34,614 bases of DNA, from IMG/VR virus record IMGVR_UViG_3300033067_000815, positions 1 to 34,614 of that record; one strand, given 5' to 3'. The notes beneath the pieces are model-generated. The model saw nothing but the letters and a program-made list of their open reading frames with translations. It had not been told where the DNA came from and did not search any database. A program made the position numbers and the translations under genes. The stretch comes from a virus (taxonomy: Duplodnaviria > Caudoviricetes). Position 1 is the first letter of the stretch; each line of letters begins with the position of its first letter. This document shows, in pieces, positions 3,771 through 33,932 of this stretch.

Positions 3771-4962
3771 CGTCTTCACCCCGGCGCTTAACCCGGCCCG
3801 GTACATTGGCATTTATGGCGGACGCGGAAGCGGGAAGAGTCATTTCTTTGCTGAGCGCGTTGTCGAGGAATCAATACAACGCAAGGTAGACATCGTTTGT
3901 CTGCGTGAGATTCAGAAGAGCCTGAAGTTTTCAGTCAAGAAGCTGGTCGAATCGAAGATCGAGGCGATGAACGCGGGGTATTACTTCGACGTTCAGAACG
4001 AGCAGATCAAGAGCAAGCACGGCGGGAACATCATCTTTCAGGGCATGCAGGATCACACGGCGGACTCGATCAAGTCGCTGGAAGGATTTGGGATTGCGTG
4101 GTTTGAGGAAGCGCAGAGTGCATCACAGCGCAGTCTTGATCTGCTGAGGCCGACGATTCGCGCGCCAGGCTCTGAGCTGTGGTTTAGCTGGAACCCGAAT
4201 CACGCGACTGACCCGATTGACTCATTGTTGCGCGGCGAGAATCCTCCGCCAAACGCTGTTGTCATCAAGGCGAACTACCACGACAACCCGTGGCTTCCTG
4301 CTGAACTGCGGGAAGAGATGGAATACGACAGGAAGCGCGACCCTGAGAAGTACGCGCATATCTGGCTGGGCGAGTATCAGCGTAACAGCTCGGCGCGCGT
4401 CTTCCGTAACTGGAAGATCGAAGAATTCGAGCGGCCCAAGGGCGTTGTTCACAGGCTTGGAGCTGATTGGGGATTCTCGATTGATCCGTCTGTATTGGTC
4501 AGGTGCGACATAGACGGGCGCAGACTGTACGTTGACTACGAAGCGTACCAGGTAGGCTGCGAGATAGATATGCTGCCTGAGTTGTTCATGCAGGTGCCAG
4601 AGGCTGAGAAATGGCCGATCACGGCAGATTCAGCAAGGCCAGAAACCATCAGCTACATGCAGCGCCACGGCTTCCCGAAGATGCACAGCGCCGTGAAGGG
4701 CGCAAAGAGCCTGGAAGAAGGCATCGAGTTTCTGCGCAGCTTTGACATCATCGTTCATCCGCGCTGCACGCACACGATAGACGAGCTGACGATGTACAGC
4801 TACAAGACCGACCCATTAACCGGCGAGGTTGTCCCGATTCTTGAAGACAAGGACAACCACGTTATTGACGCATTGCGCTACGCATGCGAAGGCGCACGGC
4901 GCACACAAAGGACGAAGGAATGGACGCAGCCATTGAAGGTGCCGACGCGGTACGTCGTGTGA
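3742..4962 (+). CDS. terL: Terminase large subunit, PBSX family
   Basis: Walker A GGRGSGKS, Walker B WFEEA, WNP, GADWG, ADSARPE, NHVIDALRYA. Confidence 0.97.
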   Translation: MSTLQIKTPSVFTPALNPARYIGIYGGRGSGKSHFFAERVVEESIQRKVDIVCLREIQKSLKFSVKKLVESKIEAMNAGYYFDVQNEQIKSKHGGNIIFQGMQDHTADSIKSLEGFGIAWFEEAQSASQRSLDLLRPTIRAPGSELWFSWNPNHATDPIDSLLRGENPPPNAVVIKANYHDNPWLPAELREEMEYDRKRDPEKYAHIWLGEYQRNSSARVFRNWKIEEFERPKGVVHRLGADWGFSIDPSVLVRCDIDGRRLYVDYEAYQVGCEIDMLPELFMQVPEAEKWPITADSARPETISYMQRHGFPKMHSAVKGAKSLEEGIEFLRSFDIIVHPRCTHTIDELTMYSYKTDPLTGEVVPILEDKDNHVIDALRYACEGARRTQRTKEWTQPLKVPTRYVV

Positions 4963-5147
4963 AGCGAGGACGACCGGCGCGAGTGTCTGCCATTGAGCAG
5001 CCAAGCCCAGCCAAAGCCTACGCTATGCGCGTCTGGGCTGGCCAGTCCGTTGACGTGCCGCCTGCCGAGAGATTGGCCCGCGTTCATGCCGCTTTGGTGG
5101 GGCAAAACCTGCCGACTGACGGCATCACACTGGAGACGATGGAGTGA
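4959..5147 (+). CDS. Hypothetical protein
   Basis: GTGA overlaps with terL stop and portal start; KRGRP N-terminus. Confidence 0.6.
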   Translation: MKRGRPARVSAIEQPSPAKAYAMRVWAGQSVDVPPAERLARVHAALVGQNLPTDGITLETME

Positions 5148-7303
5148 CTGACGAAGACCTGCTCAAGATCATAGAGGCGCACCGGGCCGACAGCCTTGGC
5201 GTCGAGGATGGAGAGCTGAGCAATGAGCGCGCCACGGCTATGGACCGCTATCACGGTCGGCCCTATGGCAACGAGATGGAAGGTCGCTCGGCCATCGTCA
5301 GCAAGGATTTGAGCGAGGCTGTGGATTGGGCGATGCCCGCCATCATGCGTATCTTCACCGCGACCGGCAATGTGGCCGAGTTAGACCCGGTTGGTCCCGA
5401 GGACGAGCGACAAGCCGAGATCGAGACGGACTACATCAACCAAGTCGTGATGAAGGACAACCCCGGCTGGATCATCCTGCACGACGCCATCAAGGACACA
5501 TTGCTGCTCAAGAACGGCTATATCAAGCACTGGTGGCACACGCAAGAGAAGATCGAGGAATTGAAATATCAGGGCCTCGATCTGCCTGAGCTGCAAATGC
5601 TGATGCAGCAGCTACAGCAGGACGGAGCCGAAGTCGAGATAAATGGCCAGGAACCGCGCCAGATTGTGACGGATCAAGGGCCGATTGAAGTCTTTGACAT
5701 CGAGCTCAAGATCAAGCGCAAAGAGGGTCGCGTGTGCATTGAGGCGGTGCCGTGCGAGGAAATCCGGGTTAGCCGGAAGTGTCGCGGAAGCCTGCAAGAC
5801 TCGCCTTTTGTCGAGCATGTAACCAGAAAGACACGCTCGGACCTGATTGAGATGGGCATGGATCGAGAGTTCGTCGATCAATTACCCGCCTACACAGAGA
5901 CAAACCAGAACAGCAGCCAGGCATTCAGCCGCGACTCTGTGAGCGACGAAACCGGCGCGAATTACGGCAATTCCTGGGACGACCGCTCGATGGATGAGAT
6001 CGAGTTTTGCGAGGCTTACATCAAGGTTGATTTTGATGGCGACGGCATCGCAGAGCTTCGCCGCGTGGTGAGTGTGGGCAATCAGATTCCCGATGGCGAA
6101 GAGTGGAATCAGCCCATTCCAGAGGTTGCAATAACCGGGTTTGTGGCCAAGCGCGTGCCGCATCGTCATGTGGGCGAGAGCATTTACGACGACCTGGGCG
6201 ACCTGCAAGAGATCAAGACCACGCTACAGCGCCAGTTGTTCGACAACATCTACCAAGTCAACAACAGCCAGTTTGCGATCAATGAGCGCTGCAATATCGC
6301 GGACTTCATGACCAATCTGCCAGGCGGATTGAAGCGCATCGAGGGGCTGGAGCCGATTGGAGACGCATTTCATCCGATTACGACGCCGTCCATCGTGGGT
6401 GAGTTGCTGCCTGCGATTGACTACATCGACAACGTGAAGGAGTCGCGCACCGGCATAACCAAGGCTTCGAGCGGGCTTGATCCCGACACCTTGGCGAATG
6501 TGACCAAGGGCGCCTTCATGGAGAACATGACGCGCGCCAGCCAGAAGGTCGAGATGATAACGCGCATGTTGGCAGAGACCGGCGTTAAAGAGCTTGTTCT
6601 TAGGGTGCATAGCCTGCTCACGCGCTACCAGGACAAGCAGCGAATCATCAGGATGAAGGGGCAATACGTACCAGTCAACCCGCAGCAGTGGCGCGAGCGC
6701 ACCGATGTAACGGTCAAAGTCGGACTCGGCACCGGCAACGAGGAAGACCGGCAACGCAAGCTGATGCTGATTGCACAGCTACAGCGCGACATGCTTGCGC
6801 CCTTGGGATTGATCGAAGCGCCGCAAGCGTTTTCACTGTTCTCAGACATCAGCAAGACGCTCGGATTCGAGGCGCCGGACAAGTTCAGCATGAGCCCGGA
6901 CAACCCGGCCTATCAGCAGAAGATGGCGAATCAGCCACCTGATCCGAAAGTGCAGATTGAGCAGGCGAAATTGCAGTCACAGACGCAGATTGAACAGATG
7001 CGCATGCAAATGCAGCAGCAGATGGAGCAGATGCGCGCACAGATGCAGCAGCAGACAGACGCGAACCGTCAAGAGATGGAAGCGCGCCAGCATCAACTAA
7101 AACTAGAGCAGGAAGGCCAGCTAGAAGCCGTAAAAGCGCAGTATGAGGATGCGCGTCATCAAAGAGAGATGGAATTCCAGCGATGGAAGGCAGAGCTAGA
7201 CGCATCGGTGCGGATCAAGTCTGCCGACATCCAGAGCCAATACAAGATGAACGACCCGGCAACACAGGCCGCGACCGCTGAAATCGGGCGCGAGGTTCAA
7301 TGA
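5144..7303 (+). CDS. Portal protein with C-terminal coiled-coil barrel
   Basis: 719 aa after terL; DFDGDGIAELRRV, ESRTG motifs; Q/E/M-rich C-terminal helix as in P22-like portals. Confidence 0.92.
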   Translation: MTDEDLLKIIEAHRADSLGVEDGELSNERATAMDRYHGRPYGNEMEGRSAIVSKDLSEAVDWAMPAIMRIFTATGNVAELDPVGPEDERQAEIETDYINQVVMKDNPGWIILHDAIKDTLLLKNGYIKHWWHTQEKIEELKYQGLDLPELQMLMQQLQQDGAEVEINGQEPRQIVTDQGPIEVFDIELKIKRKEGRVCIEAVPCEEIRVSRKCRGSLQDSPFVEHVTRKTRSDLIEMGMDREFVDQLPAYTETNQNSSQAFSRDSVSDETGANYGNSWDDRSMDEIEFCEAYIKVDFDGDGIAELRRVVSVGNQIPDGEEWNQPIPEVAITGFVAKRVPHRHVGESIYDDLGDLQEIKTTLQRQLFDNIYQVNNSQFAINERCNIADFMTNLPGGLKRIEGLEPIGDAFHPITTPSIVGELLPAIDYIDNVKESRTGITKASSGLDPDTLANVTKGAFMENMTRASQKVEMITRMLAETGVKELVLRVHSLLTRYQDKQRIIRMKGQYVPVNPQQWRERTDVTVKVGLGTGNEEDRQRKLMLIAQLQRDMLAPLGLIEAPQAFSLFSDISKTLGFEAPDKFSMSPDNPAYQQKMANQPPDPKVQIEQAKLQSQTQIEQMRMQMQQQMEQMRAQMQQQTDANRQEMEARQHQLKLEQEGQLEAVKAQYEDARHQREMEFQRWKAELDASVRIKSADIQSQYKMNDPATQAATAEIGREVQ

Positions 7304-7587
7304 CACCAGAAGATCGAGTTTTCCGGGCCACGGATGCCCGCCAACTGCTTGAAAACAAGCTCTTTGTCGAAGCCTGGGACGCAGTAGAGCGCCATCTTTC
7401 GAGCGCCGCGCTGTCGTGCGACCCAGACAACAAGGACAAGGCGCAGCGCATCATCATCAGCCAGCAGCTACTCGCAGCGGTGAAGCGCGAGATTACGCGC
7501 ATCGTGCAGGACGGAGAAGTTGCACGGGTGCAGATTGCAGAGATTGAGAAGAAACGAAGCCTTATGCAGCGCGTGCTGCGAAGGTAA
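7300..7587 (+). CDS. Small helical protein between portal and scaffold
   Basis: ATGA coupling; typical synteny. Confidence 0.75.
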   Translation: MTPEDRVFRATDARQLLENKLFVEAWDAVERHLSSAALSCDPDNKDKAQRIIISQQLLAAVKREITRIVQDGEVARVQIAEIEKKRSLMQRVLRR

Positions 7588-7595
7588 GAGTTACC

Positions 7596-7666
7596 GGCGG
7601 ACACCCGCCATTTAGCGACCGTCGAGAGACGCCGCAAGCCTTCTTGGTGTCGTGAAGGAGGCTTTT
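7596..7666 (+). promoter_or_regulatory. Three-hairpin leader upstream of scaffold gene
   Basis: GGCGG-acac-CCGCC; CGTC-gaga-GACG; AAGCCTTCTT-n9-AAGGAGGCTT+TT. Confidence 0.5.
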
Positions 7667-7678
7667 GATTGTTGAAAA

Positions 7679-8704
7679 ATGGAACAGGAATCTTCTACCT
7701 CCGATGGAGGCGAATCGACCCTGGAACGGCTCCAGAACTTCTTGTCTGCCGACGAAGATCAGGAACAAGAGCCAATCCAGCCCGAACAGGGCGAACAGGC
7801 AGACGCAACTGCGAATGAGGCATCGGAAGACGATGCTCAAGAGCCAGAAAGCGAAACACCTTCAAACGAGTACCAACTAGCCGACGTTGCCAAGCTGCTT
7901 GGCGCGGATGAAAACGCGCTCGATGTGGACGAGGACGGCTCTATCTCCGTGAAAACGAAGGTAGACGGCGAAGTGGGCAAGGTGAAATTCGCGGACCTGC
8001 TCAAGAGCTACCAACTCCAGCAGCACGCCGATAAACAGGTGCGAGAGGCGGCTGAGGTACGCAAGCAGGCGCAGGAATACGCCCAGCAGGTGCAGCAGCA
8101 GATCCAGGTACAGCAAGCAGTCGTCAGCAAGATCGCCGAAGCCAAGGCCATTGAAGCTGAATTGGCGCAATACCAGGGCATCAACTGGCAGGCGCTGATC
8201 GACTCCGATCCCGTTCAGGCGATGAAGCTCGAACACCAGATGCGCGACTTGCAGGGCAAGCACGGCGCAAAGGTGCAAGAGATCAACGCAGCGGCTCAGC
8301 AGGTCCAACAGGCACAAGCTCATCAGTCACAGGCCATGCTCGCGCAAGAGCATCAAGCCCTAATGAGAGCCATTCCTGAGTGGAGCAAAGAGGCCGTCGC
8401 CGTCAAGGAAAAGCAGGCCATTGCAGCCGACTTGAAGGCGCGGGGTTACAGCGACGCGGACATCAAAGGATTGAGCGACCACAAAGCCGTTCTCCTTGCC
8501 CGCGACGCCATGTTGTACCGGGCGCAGCAGCAGAAAACGAACCTGACCGAAAAGCAGGTACGGGCTGCGCCAAAGCTAGTCAAGCCGGGTAGCACGTCCG
8601 CTAGGAATAACGCGACTGCTATCCAAAAGATTCAATCGGAAGTCAAGCGTACCGGTTCGCGCGAAAGCGTTGCGAACTGGCTGCTGGCGACCGGCAAAGT
8701 TTAA
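7679..8704 (+). CDS. Capsid scaffolding protein
   Basis: Acidic disordered N-terminus, VKTKVDG..KV...LLKSYQ, coiled coil, APKLVKPG; directly before capsid. Confidence 0.85.
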   Translation: MEQESSTSDGGESTLERLQNFLSADEDQEQEPIQPEQGEQADATANEASEDDAQEPESETPSNEYQLADVAKLLGADENALDVDEDGSISVKTKVDGEVGKVKFADLLKSYQLQQHADKQVREAAEVRKQAQEYAQQVQQQIQVQQAVVSKIAEAKAIEAELAQYQGINWQALIDSDPVQAMKLEHQMRDLQGKHGAKVQEINAAAQQVQQAQAHQSQAMLAQEHQALMRAIPEWSKEAVAVKEKQAIAADLKARGYSDADIKGLSDHKAVLLARDAMLYRAQQQKTNLTEKQVRAAPKLVKPGSTSARNNATAIQKIQSEVKRTGSRESVANWLLATGKV

Positions 8705-8713
8705 GGAACCATC

Positions 8714-9661
8714 ATGGCACTGCCATCAAATACCCATACCACGTTCGCTTCCGTCGGCAACAAAGAAGACCTTAGCGACATCATCTATGACGTGACGCCC
8801 TACGAGACCCCGGCGCTGTCGTCTATGGCCAAAACCAAGGCCACGGGCGTCAAGCACGAGTGGCAGACGCATGCGCTGACCGCCTCCAGTGGCACCAACA
8901 AGGTGCTCGAAGGTGACGACGCCACGACCGACGCCGCGACCGTGACGGCCCGCGTCTACAACTATCGCCAGATCAGCGACAAGGTTGCCCGCGTGACCGG
9001 CACCCAAGAGGTGATCGACAAGGCTGGCCGAAAGTCGGAAATGGCGTTTCAGATGCAGGCCCGCATGCGCGAACTCAAGCGCGATGTCGAAACCCGCCTG
9101 CTTGGCAATTACGCCTCGGTGGCCGGTAATTCGACCCTTGCTCCTGAGTGCGCAGGGTTGCAGGCCTGGGTCAAGACCAACATCGACAAGGCTGCAGACG
9201 CTACCGCATCGGCAGGCAACGGAACCGACATCCACACGGATGGCACCGCCCGCGCGCTGCAGGAGTCGCAAGTCGAAGCCTGCTTGTCGCTGGCATGGGA
9301 CAACGGCGGCAATCCGACGGTCGGCTACCTCAACAGCTTCCAGAAGCGCAAGTTCGCATCGTTCTCTGGCTCCAGCACCAAGACGAGCGACGGCGACAAG
9401 AAGAAGGTGGTGAACTCGGTCGACATCTATGTCGATCCGCTGGGCAACGAGGTGCGTCTGGTTCCGTGCCGTCAGGTGCCAACCGATGTGATCTTCTTCG
9501 TCGATCCCGAGTACGTCAAGTTCGCCACGCTGCGCGACTTCAAGTCGTTCGACCTGGCGAAAACCGGCGACTCCGAGCGCAAGCAGATTCTCGTTGAGTA
9601 CACCTTGGAAGTGTGCAACGAGAAGGCTCACGCTGCGGTGTACGACCTGGCCACCTCCTAA
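8714..9661 (+). CDS. Major capsid protein (DUF5309/SU10-like)
   Basis: GNKEDLSDIIY..P.ETP, HEWQT, NYRQI, ELKRDVE, LAKTGDSE motifs; strong codon bias; RBS AAGGA. Confidence 0.93.
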   Translation: MALPSNTHTTFASVGNKEDLSDIIYDVTPYETPALSSMAKTKATGVKHEWQTHALTASSGTNKVLEGDDATTDAATVTARVYNYRQISDKVARVTGTQEVIDKAGRKSEMAFQMQARMRELKRDVETRLLGNYASVAGNSTLAPECAGLQAWVKTNIDKAADATASAGNGTDIHTDGTARALQESQVEACLSLAWDNGGNPTVGYLNSFQKRKFASFSGSSTKTSDGDKKKVVNSVDIYVDPLGNEVRLVPCRQVPTDVIFFVDPEYVKFATLRDFKSFDLAKTGDSERKQILVEYTLEVCNEKAHAAVYDLATS

Positions 9662-25559: not shown

Positions 25560-25594
25560 AAAAAAGCCCCTAGTTATGAGCTAAGGGCTTGTTT
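25560..25594. terminator. Bidirectional terminator (strongest on minus strand)
   Basis: AAAAAAGCCCcTAGt-tatg-agCTAaGGGCTTGTTT. Confidence 0.7.
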
Positions 25595-26134: not shown

Positions 26135-26169
26135 CTGCCCGTAGCTCAGTTGGATAGAGCAACAGCCTT
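26135..26169 (+). other. att core: 5' half of a tRNA gene (tRNA-Arg(UCU)-like)
   Basis: CTGCCCG-TA-GCTC-AGTTGGATA-GAGC-A-ACAGC-CTT: acceptor 5' strand, D arm, anticodon 5' stem; no T arm follows. Confidence 0.8.
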
Positions 26170-26865
26170 GCGAGCAAAGATGCGTTTTATCAGCTCGCCA
26201 AATTCTCCCTCTACCCTTACTCTAAGCGGCTTTGCGGTTTTTGATTGCTTGACAACAAGCACGCCATCAACAATGTCGCGCTCAGTCAGGCGCAGCACAT
26301 CACCTGGCCGCTGGCCTGTCAGATACGCCAGGTCCATAGCATCCCGTAAGGGCACGCTTGCGCATTGCCACACAGCCTCGTAAACGTCGTCCGTCACGTC
26401 GTTGCTGCGCCGGTCTAGCGTATGACCGCGAATGCCTGTAACTGGATTCTGGTTCTCTGTATAGCCCCAAGCCCTAGCAACATTGAACATGTGCGAGAAA
26501 AGTCTTTTCAGCCTGTTTGCAGTGGTCGGCGTTGCCGATTTCCAGCGAAGCAAAGCATGAATATGTTTTGGCTTGATCTCATCCAAAGGCGCAGGGGTTG
26601 GATCACAGAAGAATTCGAGCAACATTTTCATGTCGCCCTTTTGCGTGGCCTGCGTGCTCTTTGCCTTTGTCGGCATGACCTCGCGCACGTACTTATCGGC
26701 CAGCTCTTTGAAGGTCGTGACGACTTCGGCGGGGTCTTCGGTAAGCGCAACCCACTTTTTGACTGCGATGGTGTAATCGCTGCCAAGAGGGATTTTCTTG
26801 CGCCCTGCTTCAAGATAGTAGTAGGTGCGCCCTGATCGTTGAACGCACGCTCTAAAGCCTTTCAT
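26146..26865 (-). pseudogene. int: Tyrosine integrase, C-terminally truncated
   Basis: Arm/core-binding regions, LTGQRPGD (Arg I) and QSKT (Lys) present; ORF runs into att core and stops with no H/RxxR, LGH or catalytic Tyr. Confidence 0.85.
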
Positions 26866-26877
26866 GGTTGCTCCAAT

Positions 26878-27102
26878 TTACACCGCCCTCGGCTCCCATC
26901 CTTTGTGCTTATCAACCGGCTCAATGCTGAATGTAAACAAAGCGCGAGCCACCTTTATCTTCCCTGCATCGTTTTCATGGAACGGTATTTTTTTCTTATT
27001 CAACCATTCAATATGCAAATTCTTGCGCTCAATCCCGCGCTTCTTGCGATAGATACCTGTGAATTCGCACAGCTCTTTATCTGAAAGCCATAGACTACTC
27101 AT
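26878..27102 (-). CDS. Excisionase-like DUF4224 protein
   Basis: WLSDKELCEFTG...EWL....IPF..N..G.IKV.R; directly upstream of int. Confidence 0.75.
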   Translation of the reverse strand: MSSLWLSDKELCEFTGIYRKKRGIERKNLHIEWLNKKKIPFHENDAGKIKVARALFTFSIEPVDKHKGWEPRAV

Positions 27103-27441: not shown

Positions 27442-27699
27442 TTCACTTCTCCTTGATCCCGTGATGGGCTTCGACTTCTCGAATGAGCGCTTCAACTGCT
27501 TCGGCTGCTGGCCCATAAACAGTAATTCCAAGTCGCTCCATAATTTCAATTTGATCGTTCTCGTCCATCGGCACCAGCTTGGCTGCCAATGCAGCGCGGA
27601 GTTCATCAATCTCAGCCTGCATACAGTCGTGTTTGTCCAGACGGCTCTCCGGCAGAGTGATTCGCTCTTGCCAAGTCTTGATCACTTCACTTCTCCTTG
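27438..27699. repeat. 18-bp direct repeat at 27438-27455 and 27682-27699
   Basis: TCACTTCACTTCTCCTTG at both ends of gene 27443-27685. Confidence 0.9.
27443..27685 (-). CDS. Hypothetical early protein
   Basis: MQAEIDELRAAL, REVEAHHGIKE; RBS AAGGAG. Confidence 0.75.
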   Translation of the reverse strand: MIKTWQERITLPESRLDKHDCMQAEIDELRAALAAKLVPMDENDQIEIMERLGITVYGPAAEAVEALIREVEAHHGIKEK

Positions 27700-28254
27700 T
27701 GGCGGCTGGGGTTCACCTAGAAGTATCGCGTCTAAACTCAAGATCGCATTTACCATGAGCATTACGCCTTTTCTTGTTGGTGGTTTTGCTTGCGGCAAGT
27801 CCTCAATGTTCCGAGCAAGATTAACTGCGTCGGCCCACCCTTGCGGCACTTGCTGCGCTCCTGCTGCGACAGCTTTTTTGCCGTCGGCAAAACCGGACAT
27901 GTAAGCTATCGTCATGTCGTTGTCTCTCCACGCATCAGCCTCCAGCATGTCGGCGGCCTTCGCCATCAGCGCTTCGGTTGCAACTACATCGACATCGCCC
28001 GTGTTTGATTCGGAGTGCGTATCGCCAGACCAGCGCTTGGGCAGGTACACGTAGCCTTCGCGCAGTTTCGCAATCAATTCAGCGCGCTCAGTTGTCAACG
28101 ATTGCTTGACAACTGCCGAGGATTGCTCGGGTGTTGCGATTGCGATGACTTCGCGCAGCAATCCAGCAAAACCATGTTCATCACCATCGCCCTCGATCAC
28201 GATGGCGGCGTTGTGCAATCGCCTTTGTAGTGGTGTCATGTCTTCGAATTTCAT
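27682..28254 (-). CDS. Mosaic hypothetical early protein
   Basis: GGAG RBS before ATG 28254; TIAYMSGFADGKK segment. Confidence 0.7.
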   Translation of the reverse strand: MKFEDMTPLQRRLHNAAIVIEGDGDEHGFAGLLREVIAIATPEQSSAVVKQSLTTERAELIAKLREGYVYLPKRWSGDTHSESNTGDVDVVATEALMAKAADMLEADAWRDNDMTIAYMSGFADGKKAVAAGAQQVPQGWADAVNLARNIEDLPQAKPPTRKGVMLMVNAILSLDAILLGEPQPPQGEVK

Positions 28255-28264
28255 GGTTGCTCCA

Positions 28265-28326
28265 GAGTTATGCGACATGTCGCAGTAATTAGTTATTTGG
28301 ACGTGTCGCAGAATTCAAGTTATGCC
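28265..28326 (+). other. attI-like site bounding the cassette array
   Basis: GTTA boxes at 28267, 28292, 28319; palindrome TGCGACATGTCGCA; TGTCGCAG twice; core GTTATGCC complementary to GGCATAAC of attC-1. Confidence 0.55.
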
Positions 28327-28438
28327 CCAGCGGTCGCCAGTTGGTATTCCCATCCGGCTTTGCCGTGCAACCCATGCAGCGCAGCACGCGCTCGACAGTG
28401 TTCTTGTGGCTGGCGTTGCAGGTCGCGCAAGTTTTCAT
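28289..28438 (-). CDS. Small Cys-rich protein, paralog A (MKTCATCNASHK...)
   Basis: 49 aa, ATGA coupled; CxxC...CxxC; reads across attI-like core. Confidence 0.7.
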   Translation of the reverse strand: MKTCATCNASHKNTVERVLRCMGCTAKPDGNTNWRPLGHNLNSATRPNN

Positions 28439-28896
28439 CGCGCGTCCTCCATCGCCAGATAGATGCTCTCCAGCAGCCGCGCCGACAGCACCACGTCGCC
28501 AGTTTTCAGCGTCACGCCATGCGCGGCAGTAATCATTTCCCGCGTTACTGCCGTATCGCCAGCGCCGACTTTCCGCAGCGGCGAACCAGTGCGGCCTGTT
28601 CTCTTCAGGTAGTCAGTTGCCTTGCTATACAAATCGTCGTCGGGAGCTACCTTTTTCAGTTTCAGGGCGAGGCGCGAAACCAAAACTGCAAACTCTTCAA
28701 CCTCTGTTTTCAGTTTGTCGTTCTCGGCGCGCAGGATGTCCATCGCTTCCTCGCTTATCGGCGAAGCCTTCAGGCATGAAATCGCATCAAGCGTTTGCTC
28801 CAGGTCACCGCAACCGTCGTCGCCAATGCCAAGCGCCTCATCAATCGCGGCCAGCGTGCGCACCGCCTGTTCAAACATGCTCTTGTAGTCTGTCAT
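28435..28896 (-). CDS. Hypothetical protein (cassette 1)
   Basis: GGAG RBS just inside cassette; coiled coil and VTREMITA segment. Confidence 0.75.
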   Translation of the reverse strand: MTDYKSMFEQAVRTLAAIDEALGIGDDGCGDLEQTLDAISCLKASPISEEAMDILRAENDKLKTEVEEFAVLVSRLALKLKKVAPDDDLYSKATDYLKRTGRTGSPLRKVGAGDTAVTREMITAAHGVTLKTGDVVLSARLLESIYLAMEDAR

Positions 28897-28915
28897 TTCG
28901 TCTCCAGTGTCAAAG

Positions 28916-28996
28916 GCATAACACGTCGGTCCAGCGGACGTGCCGCCAGCGTCGCTTCGCTCCTAGTCGTCACGCCGCTGACCTCCACCGTTAGAA
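28916..28996 (+). other. attC site 1 (81 bp)
   Basis: GCATAAC-acgtc-GGTCCAGC...GCTGACC-tccacc-GTTAGAA; one extra base in L''. Confidence 0.88.
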
Positions 28997-29166
28997 CTCT
29001 CGATCCGTGCCAAAGCCAAAGCCCTTGCAGTTGCGAGTGTCAGGCTTGTGCTCACGAAACCAATCGTTATCAACGAAACAACTCCATCGATAATGCTTGC
29101 CGGGCCAATTAGTATCCTCAGTCCCAATGCCTTTGCGTTCGGCTCTTTCTTCGTATTCAATCGCAT
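28963..29166 (-). CDS. Small hydrophobic protein (cassette 2)
   Basis: GGAG RBS; MRLNTKKEP...IIDGVVSLITIGFVST; stop inside attC-1. Confidence 0.7.
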   Translation of the reverse strand: MRLNTKKEPNAKALGLRILIGPASIIDGVVSLITIGFVSTSLTLATARALALARIESSNGGGQRRDD

Positions 29167-29190
29167 TACTCTTTCTCCGAATTTGCAGAG

Positions 29191-29247
29191 TTCTAACCCT
29201 ACATTGGAGCGAACGGCTTTCAGCCGCCGCTCAATTCCACGTTCGGC
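29191..29247 (+). other. attC site 2 (57 bp)
   Basis: TTCTAAC-cctac-ATTGGAGC...GCTCAAT-tccac-GTTCGGC. Confidence 0.88.
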
Positions 29248-29248
29248 G

Positions 29249-29422
29249 TCACTGATTGCCCGGCCAAACAACCGCATCAGCCTTTCCGCGCAACACCATC
29301 CATGCTGCTTTCCAGCGGTTGGTAAAGCGCCAGTTTTCCGGGCGGGCTGGAATCCACTTACCGTCAATGCAGACGGAAGTTGTGCTGACGCTCGCCAATA
29401 GGTTTTGCAGTGTCCAGATCAT
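29249..29422 (-). CDS. 57-aa phage protein (cassette 3), missing from ORF track
   Basis: MIWTLQNL...GKWIPARP...RWKAAWMVLRGKADAVVWPGNQ; ATGA coupled. Confidence 0.75.
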   Translation of the reverse strand: MIWTLQNLLASVSTTSVCIDGKWIPARPENWRFTNRWKAAWMVLRGKADAVVWPGNQ

Positions 29423-29640
29423 TGGTCGACTCCAGCAAAAACCGGCTCTCCTGGCGGCACGATCAAATGCCCGAAGGTGTCGCTGCCAATGTCGTAAGCG
29501 TCTCGCGCCTCGTTCGTCCAGGGATTGAACAGCCAGGCCATTTTGCCGTGGTGCTCACGGTATTGAGCCGCGTGGCTCGGGTACGGTTTTTCATCGCCCG
29601 TGGCCGGGTCAAACTTCATCAGGGTTTGTTGCTGCTTCAT
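29419..29640 (-). CDS. Hypothetical phage protein (cassette 3)
   Basis: GGAG RBS; MKFDPATG..PYPSHA.QYR..HG..AWLFNPWT. Confidence 0.8.
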   Translation of the reverse strand: MKQQQTLMKFDPATGDEKPYPSHAAQYREHHGKMAWLFNPWTNEARDAYDIGSDTFGHLIVPPGEPVFAGVDQ

Positions 29641-29668
29641 CGCTTCATCTCCGTAGTTGCCCCGTGCC

Positions 29669-29758
29669 GCCGAACATTGCGGTCGAGGGGACGCTGTTCA
29701 ATCGTTGTTGGCCTCTTCGGGCGCCGTGCCGCAGCGCCCCTCACCTCCAGCGTTGGGC
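29669..29758 (+). other. attC site 3 (90 bp)
   Basis: GCCGAAC-attgc-GGTCGAGG...CCTCACC-tccagc-GTTGGGC. Confidence 0.88.
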
Positions 29759-29871
29759 GTCAGTGGTCGCCAGTTACTATTCCCGTCCGGTCTCGCCACG
29801 CAACCCATGCAGCGCATCACGCGCTCAACAGTGTTCGCATGACTGGCATTGCAAGTCGCGCACGTTTTCAT
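29698..29871 (-). CDS. Small Cys-rich protein, paralog B (MKTCATCNASHA...)
   Basis: Homologous to 28289-28438; stop inside attC-3. Confidence 0.7.
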   Translation of the reverse strand: MKTCATCNASHANTVERVMRCMGCVARPDGNSNWRPLTPNAGGEGRCGTAPEEANND

Positions 29872-29890
29872 CGTGCAGTCGGTTGTGTCG

Positions 29891-30274
29891 TTACAGCAGC
29901 ACATCCGCATCCACCCCAAGCGCATAAGCTCGTCGCGCGGCGCGATAGCAAAGCTTTCGCCTGCCTGCCTTTATATCTATGTAATGCTTCGGCATGATCC
30001 CAAGCACCTTTGCAAATTCACATTGCTTCAATCCAAGCTCGATTCGTTTTGCTTCAAGCGCATCACTCTGCGAAACTTCTTGCTTGGCACATGTCGCAAG
30101 CTGGATAAGGTTGGCAACAATCTCGGCGCGTTTCGCCCGCTCTGTTTTCTCACGGTCTAAGTATTGAGCAAGGTTGTCAATTGCTTTGTGGACTTTTTCA
30201 GGTTTAACGACTGGCAATGGCTCGTAAAACCGATCCGGCACGCTGCGATCAACTAGGCCCATCCAAATGTTCAT
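29891..30274 (-). CDS. XRE-type HTH protein
   Basis: RIELGLKQCEFAKVLGI...Y.DI.AGRR. Confidence 0.75.
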   Translation of the reverse strand: MNIWMGLVDRSVPDRFYEPLPVVKPEKVHKAIDNLAQYLDREKTERAKRAEIVANLIQLATCAKQEVSQSDALEAKRIELGLKQCEFAKVLGIMPKHYIDIKAGRRKLCYRAARRAYALGVDADVLL

Positions 30275-30924
30275 GATGCATCACCACGCAAAAACGACTC
30301 CGCATTCATCACGCATTGACGGAAGCGGATCAATCCAGCCTCAAGGTTCTCAATAAACCCCTCGTTCCTTGTAACCCTCTTGCAAAACAGGTCGCGTCCA
30401 ACATGCTCAAGGTCTGGCACATACATGATGAAGTCGCACCATTTGCGCCCGGTGATCCACATTCCGCCTTGTATCTGGTGTTCGTACTCTGATATGTCGC
30501 CAGTGCGCAGCATGGCCATGATTTTTTGAGAGTCCACAGGGCACTTGATCTCGATCAGTCCGTCATCATCGACAAACCCGTCTGTGCTGTAGCCAAACCA
30601 GTCGTCATCCGTTTTGACGATGCCGGATTCCTCGGCAATCATCCCTGTGCGCGACTCGTAAGCAATGCGGGCCTTGACTTCCATTTCGTGCCCACGGTCG
30701 AGAGCCCATCCGCGCGGCGGCTCGCCGTATGGGACGCCACTGATCCGCTCGATGGCAATGTCATAGGCGTACTTTTCAGCCGCTCCAGTCATATCGCCTG
30801 CCTTCTTGTCTCCGCTGGCGCGCTGTAACACGCTGACGGCATCAGAAAACCGGCTTGCCGTGATGGCTCCGGCGCGTGCCGCAAGCCATTCAGGCATGCC
30901 CTGTTGGCAGTTGATGAACTTCAT
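30271..30924 (-). CDS. exo: Lambda exonuclease / YqaJ family
   Basis: QG..EW..AR.G.ITAS, G.E.E..AR..YE, STDG, IEIKCP, QIQG. Confidence 0.93.
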   Translation of the reverse strand: MKFINCQQGMPEWLAARAGAITASRFSDAVSVLQRASGDKKAGDMTGAAEKYAYDIAIERISGVPYGEPPRGWALDRGHEMEVKARIAYESRTGMIAEESGIVKTDDDWFGYSTDGFVDDDGLIEIKCPVDSQKIMAMLRTGDISEYEHQIQGGMWITGRKWCDFIMYVPDLEHVGRDLFCKRVTRNEGFIENLEAGLIRFRQCVMNAESFLRGDAS

Positions 30925-31871
30925 GCCGGCTCCATGATCGACTTGAGTTCATCGAACTTGGCCTCAAGGATTGATCGCTCTTCATCGTTCTTGATGTGCT
31001 CAATCTTTACTGCCGCTTCATAAAGCGCATCGACATCCTGCGACGAAACAAGCGCCGTCATCACATCCTCAAATGATGGCGCCTGCTTTAGTTCCATCCT
31101 GCGTGCAATCACTGCGTCTTTGAATGCCTTGTGGTCTTCTGGTTGCTTGGCCAGCTTCCCGTTGTGCGTCGCCCAATACTTCGCGGCATCTGCATCCGTC
31201 TTGCATTCTTTGATGCCGTCCATCAGCGGCCTTGGGTCAAGGTAGTCGAATGTCGGTGTCTCGATCTCGTCGGCGCGCATGGACTTGCCTTCCATTTCGT
31301 CGGCTGTTGGCTGGCTTGCAATCTCTGGAAACGCCATGCGAAGGGCTTGCGCCTGGGCGCACTTTGCGATTTGCCCATAAGGACGCTTGGACCACATTGC
31401 ATTTGGCGCAACGCTCTTTTCCTTTCCGCCTTTGACTGCGTAGTTCTCTTTCCAGAACTCGCGGGCCGTGAATTCGACAATCTCGCCGGTCGGAAGCCTG
31501 CGCTTTACAGTCACGCGGCACCACTGAGGGAAAGTGATTCTTTGGCCGCCAATTGGTTCTTCAATGTCTGGGCCGAATTCCGGCTCAGTGATCCCGGCGC
31601 ATTCGCCTGAGCGCATGGCCTGGGTGCGGTACAGGTTGACGCCAGGCATGATGACATCGCGCATCGTTCCAGCCTTTGCGTCCCACATTGGGACGATGTG
31701 AACTGGCTTTTGCATGGGATCTAGCCCCGCTGCTTTGCAATAGCCAAGAACCATCTTGATCGACTCAATGGCAGCGCCAGGATACAGCGACGATTGCAAG
31801 ACCTTGATGGTCTCTTGCTCGGTAATCTGCAATTCGCCAGATTGACGAATGGTTGCTATGTTGCTCATCAT
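30921..31871 (-). CDS. bet: Phage recombination protein Bet (RecT superfamily)
   Basis: YC...GLDP..K.VHIVP, W..RP..QI.KCA.AQALR.AFP, T.DEM; adjacent to exo. Confidence 0.92.
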   Translation of the reverse strand: MMSNIATIRQSGELQITEQETIKVLQSSLYPGAAIESIKMVLGYCKAAGLDPMQKPVHIVPMWDAKAGTMRDVIMPGVNLYRTQAMRSGECAGITEPEFGPDIEEPIGGQRITFPQWCRVTVKRRLPTGEIVEFTAREFWKENYAVKGGKEKSVAPNAMWSKRPYGQIAKCAQAQALRMAFPEIASQPTADEMEGKSMRADEIETPTFDYLDPRPLMDGIKECKTDADAAKYWATHNGKLAKQPEDHKAFKDAVIARRMELKQAPSFEDVMTALVSSQDVDALYEAAVKIEHIKNDEERSILEAKFDELKSIMEPA

Positions 31872-33137: not shown

Positions 33138-33818
33138 TTAAACGTAGTTCTCAGCCTCGATTCGAGTTATGAAAAAGTGGATGCCGTTTGAGCATTCATC
33201 CATCCAGTTGTCATCAAAACTGTCTGGAATCACCCGCTGGCCTACGGCATAAACCGTTTTTTCGTCGTGCTGGCTGATTCCGACTTCTGCGCCGAATACC
33301 TCAAGCACATCGGCAAATTCAGCGCGGCATTTGCGCCCGAATGCGTGTGATCGCTTGGCCTCTTCTGGTATGCGCAGCTTCACGATTACATCGTTCATGC
33401 ATTTCTTCCATCCGATCAAAGCGCCTTCGCCGAGGATGCGAGTTCGGGCGATAGCCAGGTCTGCGTTTTTTGAGCCGCTCAGGTTGGAGCCGCGCAGGTC
33501 GGAGTAGCTCAGGTTGGAGCCGCGCAGGTTGGAGCCGCTCAGGTTGGAGCCGCGCAGGTCGGAGTAGCTCAGGTTGGAGCCGCTCAGGTTGGAGCCGCGC
33601 AGGTTGGAGCCGCTCAGGTCGGAGCCGCTCAGGTCGGAGCCGCTCAGGTCGGAGCCGCTCAGGTCGGAGCCGCTCAGGTCGGAGCCGCTCAGGTTGGAGC
33701 CGCTCCTAGTCGCGGCCTCCAGCGTCTCCCGCATCGTCATGCCAGATGCGCCCGTGTACAGCACCGCCCCAGTCCAGCGGTGTTTGATCTCTATCGGCGC
33801 TGACTTGATATCACTCAT
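33138..33818 (-). CDS. Pentapeptide-repeat protein with DUF5758-like C-terminal domain
   Basis: IEIKHRWTG.VL, 15 x [S/R][G/Y]S[N/D]L, GWKK...KCRA...D.FD.....ECS.GIHFF.T..EA. Confidence 0.9.
   Translation of the reverse strand: MSDIKSAPIEIKHRWTGAVLYTGASGMTMRETLEAATRSGSNLSGSDLSGSDLSGSDLSGSDLSGSDLSGSNLRGSNLSGSNLSYSDLRGSNLSGSNLRGSNLSYSDLRGSNLSGSKNADLAIARTRILGEGALIGWKKCMNDVIVKLRIPEEAKRSHAFGRKCRAEFADVLEVFGAEVGISQHDEKTVYAVGQRVIPDSFDDNWMDECSNGIHFFITRIEAENYV
33471..33705. repeat. 15-bp tandem repeat (coding pentapeptides)
   Basis: ggagccgctcaggt(t/c) units. Confidence 0.95.
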
Positions 33819-33932
33819 ATCACTCCTTGTTAATCCGCCAATCCAGCATCGGCCCATCGGACCTCAAACCCCCGTCTGCATCGTTTCGGTTAGCCCCGGA
33901 TCGCTCGGCTGGGTTTTGCGCTGTTGGAGTGA

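Follow-up and report, generated by a model that had tools for sequence, protein, structure and literature searches.

The array of small genes in the early region of the phage analysed here is a real feature that consists of integron-type cassettes and has the anatomy of a CALIN; it is neither a complete integron nor a canonical cassette array. The phage is probably an intI-less member of a phage-resident integron family of reversed polarity; its own intI would have been replaced, and the array is likely a leftover of gene shuffling run by the phage.

Organization of the phage and its cassette array

The window, i.e. the whole stretch of 34,614 nucleotides that was analysed, is the entire virus record IMGVR_UViG_3300033067_000815, which is linear and approximately 90% complete. 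Its backbone is organized as follows.

Left part of the window, + strand: terminase, portal, capsid and lysis genes
About 33.9 kb to 26.1 kb, - strand: leftward early region with RecT, YqaJ, a regulator, the array, xis and a lambda-type integrase
29891..31871, - strand: early genes upstream of the array (phrog_7241 regulator, YqaJ exonuclease, RecT annealing protein)
26146..27102, - strand: xis plus a lambda-type integrase that is truncated at its C-terminus and is not an IntI; both lie downstream of the array

The array and its left neighbour comprise the following features.

27682..28254, - strand: gene X, 190 aa, a non-integrase in the slot held by intI in relatives; three non-self homologs with a common N-terminus, no IntI similarity
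28263..28321, + strand: attI-like site, simple, with GTT-initial repeats at -52 (28267) and -27 (28292) and the crossover G/TT at 28319/28320
28320..28990, + strand: cassette A, attI-proximal, two antisense genes and attC1; 8-bp complementarity between 5' core and own R''
28991..29241, + strand: cassette B; 11-bp core complementarity
29242..29752, + strand: cassette C, two antisense genes and attC3; 8-bp core complementarity
29753..29876, + strand: remnant cassette D, a diverged copy of the cassette A start (100 of 122 nt identical), with its own R'' and attC gone
28916..28996, + strand (predicted recombinogenic bottom strand, -): attC1, covariance model 55.5 bits, also in the strict scan
29191..29247, + strand: attC2, covariance model 45.5 bits, also in the strict scan
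29669..29758, + strand: attC3, covariance model 48.4 bits, also in the strict scan
28289..28438, - strand: gene A1, 49 aa, Cys-rich, reading across the crossover with its stop inside the attI-like site; 14 viral homologs
28435..28896, - strand: gene A2, 153 aa, function unassigned; weak phrog_660 match, nine viral homologs
28963..29166, - strand: gene B, 67 aa, hydrophobic middle, GGAG; stop inside attC1
29249..29422, - strand: gene C1, 57 aa; phrog_21988, E 9e-20
29419..29640, - strand: gene C2, 73 aa; homologs in the viral arrays L010, L019 and L305, and also in L011
29698..29871, - strand: gene D, 57 aa, an A1 paralog; stop inside attC3

The preliminary description of this DNA had placed three attC-type sites here, and their coordinates, their architecture and the + top strand were all borne out. 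Judged from the sequence, the R'', L'', L' and R' boxes, the spacers, the extrahelical bases and a predicted bottom-strand fold are present in attC1, attC2 and attC3. The L''/L' pairing was 7/7 in each site once the extrahelical fourth base was removed, and each had a fully paired inner stem (6/6) and a second bulge. When both strands of the window were scanned under strict settings, these three sites were the sole matches, and 200 dinucleotide shuffles returned none. When the cut-off was relaxed, 40 shuffles averaged 0.93 sites per window, and three sites never clustered within 1 kb. A covariance model of attC, the check that the preliminary description had proposed, scored the bottom (-) strands at 45.5-55.5 bits and the next match in the window at 11.9; the test is not fully independent, since many of the training sites were drawn with a pattern derived from site 1 of the window. 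The model was trained on 50 of 163 candidate attC sites from bacterial-genome loci, with prophage-like loci excluded. It also recovered the three sites of Tetrasphaera phage TJE1 (25.9-36.8 bits) and scored a class 1 cassette site at 23.2 bits. The free-folding z-scores of the three sites were modest (-2.25, -2.06 and -0.52), and an Rfam scan of the window returned no relevant family. A CALIN is defined by attC sites that cluster within 4 kb on the same strand in the absence of intI; here three same-strand sites lie within 843 bp, and no intI was found in the contig.

Each cassette had also been said to carry a 5' core complementary to the R'' at its own 3' end. In a 4 x 3 matrix of cores and R'' boxes, the diagonal showed 8, 11 and 8 bp of complementarity, compared to 3-4 bp in the nine off-diagonal cells. 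Among 55 cassettes compared, the complementarity averaged 8.4 bp with the cassette's own R'' versus 4.3 bp with the present R', being higher in 48 and lower in one.

As had been noticed before, every ORF of the array is on the - strand. A canonical cassette carries its ORF sense to the attC top strand, to be read from Pc; in this array all ORFs are antisense. Each gene was further described as having an RBS beside R'' or an ATGA coupling. This holds for A2, B and C2, which have GGAG 5-8 nt before the ATG beside R'', and for the ATGA-coupled A1 and C1, but not for gene D, which has no clear RBS and no coupled gene upstream. The stops said to fall inside a neighbouring site were located for A1 (in the attI-like site), B (in attC1) and D (in attC3). 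As to function, the array cargo had no match in Pfam or PADLOC. No Pfam, PHROG or PADLOC family was found for genes A1 and B, and homologs of gene B were absent among the loci fetched. In the ESM Atlas, A2 matched only unnamed clusters, all below 0.9. No homologs of the window's cassette genes were found in the bacterial integron loci fetched; the cargo homologs were only viral.

The attI-like site and the intI slot

A profile HMM was built from 18 phage sites adjacent to intI, with the window's own site left out. It matched 28263-28321 with an E value of 1.6e-7, while the next match had an E value of 2.4. The search motif for these sites had been drawn partly from the window, and approximately 10 of the 28 viral IntI loci have a different upstream sequence and are not in the HMM set. 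Counted from the crossover, the GTT-initial repeats lie at -52/-53 and -32/-33 in the relatives (-53/-32 in L299) and at -51/-32 in attI1 (plasmid record), compared to -52/-27 in the window, where the inner repeat is displaced. From this similarity and from its position, we consider that the head of the array carries a putative attI, and call it attI-like. The preliminary description did not name the left end of the array as an attI-like site. The intI-adjacent matches also led us to drop a reading of positions 28266-28326 as either a hairpin or an attC in decay.

In the relatives, the slot beyond this site is held by intI; in the window it is held by gene X, whose start is 13 nt from the outer repeat. 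The claim that the window lacks intI stood up: TIGR02249 gave no match in this approximately 90% complete contig, and tblastn with six IntIs gave a best E value of 0.63. Neither an intI beside the array, as a complete integron would have, nor an intI remnant was found in the contig; since approximately 10% of the phage is missing, an intI may lie elsewhere in its genome. The window's own integrase was considered as the shuffling enzyme and rejected, as it is lambda-type and truncated and matches neither IntI nor NCBIfam. A consensus promoter scan, which is insensitive and performed at chance level (6 vs 4.3), found no pL in the window and no promoter near the attI-like site; the array may be read from pL, as the preliminary description held.

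intI in phage relatives

Four viral loci carry a true IntI, all four tested reaching 450-473 bits with TIGR02249 against a cut-off of 265. In these loci, intI lies downstream of the cassette genes on the same strand, and the sequence directly before its start codon closely resembles window positions 28266-28321. A motif search retrieved 13 viral loci. In 11 of these, the site was followed directly by an intact intI (two of the 11 being identical there); intI was broken in one locus and missing from another. A search of metagenomes added two further loci, both with intI; one duplicates L192, and the other is L333, which has the closest motif. All five carrier records checked were 100% complete by CheckV. 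The order in the relatives is early genes, antisense cassettes, attI and intI, often followed by xis and int in the same position as in the window. Throughout the 15 intI-carrying viral loci, all 75 attC matches have their bottom strand on the strand of intI. Loss of intI is recurrent: L324 has none, L321 has a broken copy, and L296 has a second attI with a 20-aa stub.

The phage IntIs are approximately 53% identical to IntI1. In a tree of 36 IntI sequences, a biased sample, the carriers of the phage attI mostly formed one group apart from eight bacterial IntIs (support 94/97), and other viral IntIs fell elsewhere. No IntI of the carrier group was found in cultured phages, where nine records were each below 60% identity. 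RecT of the window was absent from all five intI carriers checked, which are therefore not close kin of the window phage. Backbone searches of the viral contigs with the regulator gene found no close relative either, and those with gene X gave only one marginal match. Among INPHARED phages the array had no blastn match, and nothing cultured resembled it at the DNA level. A proteobacterial LexA-box motif was absent from all seven intI loci examined, a weak indication. At a larger scale, intI was present within 4 kb in one of 79 viral loci with the attC pattern versus 18 of 82 bacterial loci, a viral proportion that fits the use of a host IntI and frequent loss of intI alike.

Cassette polarity in phages and bacteria

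To call the orientation, a simple ORF/SD rule was applied to the gene adjoining each site. Of the 57 cassettes examined in 14 viral loci with intI, 47 were antisense, none was sense and 10 were uncalled; these cassettes are the intervals between consecutive model matches (74 of 75 matches used), with intervals longer than 1.5 kb dropped. At 166 sites of viral loci with the same attC pattern, 87 calls were antisense, 36 sense and 12 both, with 31 uncalled; some of the 36 sense calls are probably shadow frames. In bacterial-genome loci with full flanks, 150 of 211 sites were sense, five antisense, five both and 51 uncalled. The antisense calls in bacteria came from four loci, three of which have ORFs resembling those of a prophage. 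Moreover, in the 25 loci compared for cassette movement (below), the attC matches were opposite to the gene strand in all but one. These counts support the view that phage arrays are as a rule antisense and that the polarity seen in the window is no local accident.

Breakpoints and mobility

If the array is made of cassettes, relatives should differ at G/TT. The DNA similarity around gene A1 indeed started exactly at G28319 in nine of the 14 viral loci, in line with the breakpoints that the preliminary description had anticipated. Upstream of the equivalent of 28319, these nine loci have attC sites that belong to other cassettes and are either full or decayed, and one context is common to two of the loci; the remaining five loci had no GTT in register. 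Gene A2 forms a complete stand-alone one-gene cassette in L001 and L003. The loci L327 and L329, which are 96.9-99.96% identical, differ by two cassettes at G/TT, one of them at attI, and L299 and L301, which are 99.9% identical over 4 kb up to attI, have different first cassettes right after attI. Breakpoints at G/TT and own-R'' cores are what integron cassettes are expected to show; whole-unit movement of cassettes B and C was not seen. An attC in L329 has collapsed.

Contigs of six sequencing runs were inspected for rearranged forms. They showed no joint at G/TT and no excised or reordered form of the array; since contigs drop rare variants, this says nothing on excision. Runs X3-X9 shared less than one tenth of the sequence words, and those inspected covered mostly attC bodies and gene A2 relatives. 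The junction of the attI-like site with cassette A and the stretch from cassette C through attC3 and D to RecT were each contained within a single contig with no differences, and the junction of A2, R'' and spacer also occurs in L002. In run X1, attC1 was unbridged among the contigs listed, and its body is common to many other contigs of the sequencing runs. The X1 contig with cassette B had a depth of 3.6, compared to 5.6-8 for its neighbours, and it was unlike the window left of 28926, a departure inside attC1 and not at G/TT. The order of cassettes A and B is thus uncertain.

Discussion

At the head of the array is an attI-like site of a kind that elsewhere adjoins an intact phage intI, and the array is most likely not a system built around a host IntI. 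In the scheme that we favour, a phage IntI would have folded the attC bottom strands, cut out the cassettes as circles and integrated these at attI, and would in this manner have built the array of the window. The leftward early transcript would enter at the old end of the array, read the cassettes from oldest to newest and then reach the intI slot, so that IntI would be produced on induction or infection. Since the cassette genes are on the bottom strand, such a transcript would read all cassettes and intI, and a Pc would be unnecessary; the same read-through would explain the RBS beside R'', the ATGA couplings and the stops inside neighbouring sites. Lambdoid gene order suggests an origin to the right of the array; replication from it would make the bottom strand the template of the lagging strand, on which attC would fold best. 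According to the accessible text of PMC11023631, the partners that IntI recombines are a folded attC bottom strand and a double-stranded attI, and excision is greater when the bottom strand is on the lagging-strand template.

With intI gone, the array can probably no longer change, except through an IntI supplied in trans. Insertion at attI is more dependent on a cognate integrase than is attC x attC excision. The trans source might be a related co-infecting phage, which would be needed for insertion at attI, or a host integron, whose IntI would probably be sufficient for attC x attC excision.

The preliminary description had proposed that the phage shuffles its genes with a borrowed host IntI, IntI being SOS-induced in many integrons. 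In this model the host enzyme actively shuffles an integrase-free phage cassette system, an intI of the phage's own is optional, and reliance on the host is common among phages. We regard this as unlikely. What it has on its side is that 78 of the 79 viral attC-pattern loci have no intI within 4 kb, that the attC sites and cores of the window are intact, and that IntI1 recombines phage attC sites (main text of PMC9892861). Besides, two betaproteobacterial genomes with prophage-like antisense arrays (labelled Sulfuritalea and Propionivibrio) also carry a chromosomal IntI with 60-64% identity to phage IntI. However, the chromosomal integrons of these two genomes do not match the phage attI profile and their cassettes are sense, whereas the entry site of the window belongs to the phage intI family. 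Homologs of the window's cassette genes were absent from the bacterial integron loci fetched, and decay is visible in remnant D and in the collapsed attC of L329. Of the earlier interpretation, then, the integron-type cassettes, the breaks at G/TT and the antisense rule stand; the borrowed host IntI does not stand as the main explanation, as the attI adjoins the phage's own intI in the relatives. It is nevertheless possible that a host IntI acts in trans on the array of the window.

The breakpoints also bear on a reading in which the attC hairpins are now only repeated linkers for RecT/YqaJ-type homologous recombination, IntI being irrelevant. RecT and YqaJ do lie 0.5-2 kb upstream of the array, and the widespread attC1 body and the cassette B contig that departs inside it and not at G/TT would suit it, but relatives break at G/TT, each 5' core pairs with its own R'', and exchange between hairpins would not yield insertion at attI; we hold this to be very unlikely. 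The same unbridged attC1 and the low depth of the divergent cassette B contig could mean that the cassettes are real and their order in the contig is partly an assembly product joined via the repeated attC1. To this we give only a slim chance, as the single-contig stretches at both ends of the array showed no differences and the A2-R''-spacer junction recurs in L002. Finally, the attC family of the window is common in bacterial integrons, and a prophage might have captured a piece of a chromosomal integron, as in the Vibrio phages of Qi et al. This has been largely refuted and is hardly credible: in bacterial arrays of this attC family, 150 of 211 sites were called sense and five antisense, the cargo homologs are found only in viral loci, and the attI is of the phage type. 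The reading of the window as an intI-less member of a phage integron family is therefore preferred.

Several known systems share part of this anatomy. The main text of Qi et al. 2023 (PMC9892861) reports 17 phage CALINs and three complete integrons, with IntI1 active on five of six phage attC sites tested; the complete ones are described there as pieces of Vibrio, Shewanella or class 1 integrons. Those CALINs, e.g. that of Tetrasphaera phage TJE1, resemble the window as intI-less attC clusters with canonical sites. However, the genes at the three sites of TJE1 are sense to the top strand and those of the window are antisense. That main text has no antisense cargo, no intI-less attI in an early operon and no phage IntI family; in its supplement the words 'antisense' and 'opposite' occur zero times, although the figures or the annotation file might show orientation. 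The class 1 platform (intI1, attI1 with DR1/DR2, and Pc) resembles the window in the G/TT crossover, in the similar spacing of its GTT-initial repeats and in the attC polarity relative to the intI slot. Unlike class 1, the window has its genes on the bottom strand toward the attI/intI slot, Pc is not evident and intI is absent.

In the accessible accounts of the Treponema-type inverted-integrase integrons (10.1101/030866) and of the virus Rctr41k (KX853513), intI and the cassette genes are on one strand, as in the phage family. There, however, the flipped element is intI, with respect to attC, and the genes keep the sense orientation; in the phage family it is the genes that are flipped, and attC and intI keep their canonical polarity to each other. 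Rctr41k has weak attC matches (18-21 bits) downstream of intI; the window, being without intI, falls outside the Treponema-type definition. The CALINs and SALINs that arise from attG insertion, as far as the accessible text describes them (10.1101/2022.09.11.507474), are likewise small clusters with no intI or intI pseudogene nearby. Unlike them, the first junction of the window is a 59-nt attI-like site common to intI phages and not a bare GWT. In the open literature searched, which covers few subscription journals and includes the accessible text of PMC13492144, PMC8618304 and 10.1101/2022.02.06.479319, no description of reverse-coded phage cassettes or of a phage attI/IntI family was found. 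Phage CALINs are thus already published, and the reversed polarity and the phage attI/IntI family are without a description in the literature searched.

Integrons have been regarded as bacterial devices in which the choice of strand serves expression from Pc, and the published examples from phages have been interpreted as captured fragments or strays. If phages have an integron family of their own, with a separate IntI and attI and with cassettes coded in reverse, the same chemistry would serve a different expression logic, and some of the turnover of small early genes in temperate phages would have a site-specific source that can be tested. The window adds an intI-less state with a retained attI, which connects the small number of complete phage integrons with the many phage arrays that lack an integrase, and it names the exact site pair and the enzyme. 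A wider proposal is more tentative, and we put it forward as somewhat doubtful. Temperate phages of Betaproteobacteria-like hosts may run their own integron with a separate reverse-coded cassette pool in the early operon, with all cassettes and intI expressed on induction, while intI-less phages keep attI and may cheat by using the IntI of co-infecting phages. If true, this would mean that a site-specific mechanism drives the mosaicism of small genes in the early regions of phages.

The phage integrase of the window and its surroundings

The window integrase gene (int, 26146-26865) encodes a protein of 239 aa. A homolog of 374 aa aligned with it over homolog residues 2-269, and the C-terminal catalytic part was not found within the window. 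The int stop codon falls within a segment (26139-26169) that overlaps the end of the gene and whose sequence matches the 5' portion of a tRNA. In contigs from three sequencing runs, the tRNA-like sequence continued beyond 26169, with an apparent anticodon of TCT. For integration at a tRNA-Arg site, 26139-26169 is the likely attP core. Since no C-terminal catalytic part of the integrase was found in the window, the phage may be incapable of integrating by itself.

Two further features of the window were recorded:
25564-25590, minus strand, terminator-like hairpin between the lysis genes and int
33138-33857, early region, gene for a pentapeptide-repeat and DUF5758 protein

A weak, below-threshold match to Rfam Thr_leader was located at the same place as the hairpin. 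Inside xis, approximately 190 nt upstream of int, positions 27057-27072 perfectly matched a proteobacterial LexA-box pattern; this match may have arisen by chance.

Integron components in other phages

The attI copies and the layout of cassettes in other viral loci were as follows:
L296 4918-4975 and 8292-8349, a pair of attI copies within the same phage
L324 3993-4049, attI heading an array without intI, followed by packaging genes
L335 (KX853513, virus Rctr41k) 4680-9434, IntI-like gene annotated as xerD, then cassettes

In the phage L296, one attI precedes a full intI, while the second precedes a 20-aa intI stub and then the phage int, and separate cassettes are present at each of them. The phage integron layout of virus Rctr41k was different, with sense-oriented cassettes after the IntI-like gene; these cassettes showed weak attC matches and had methyltransferases among their cargo. 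DNA methyltransferases and a PAPS-reductase-like protein were also among the genes in or beside related arrays (L024 2691-3386, L001 1921-2805, and L010 4392-5144).

The phage L329 carries a cassette whose attC body is collapsed to a 6-nt spacer separating AAC from GTT (5340-5356), whereas this cassette was absent at G/TT in the near-identical phage L327. The collapsed attC of L329 shows how cassettes can become fixed.
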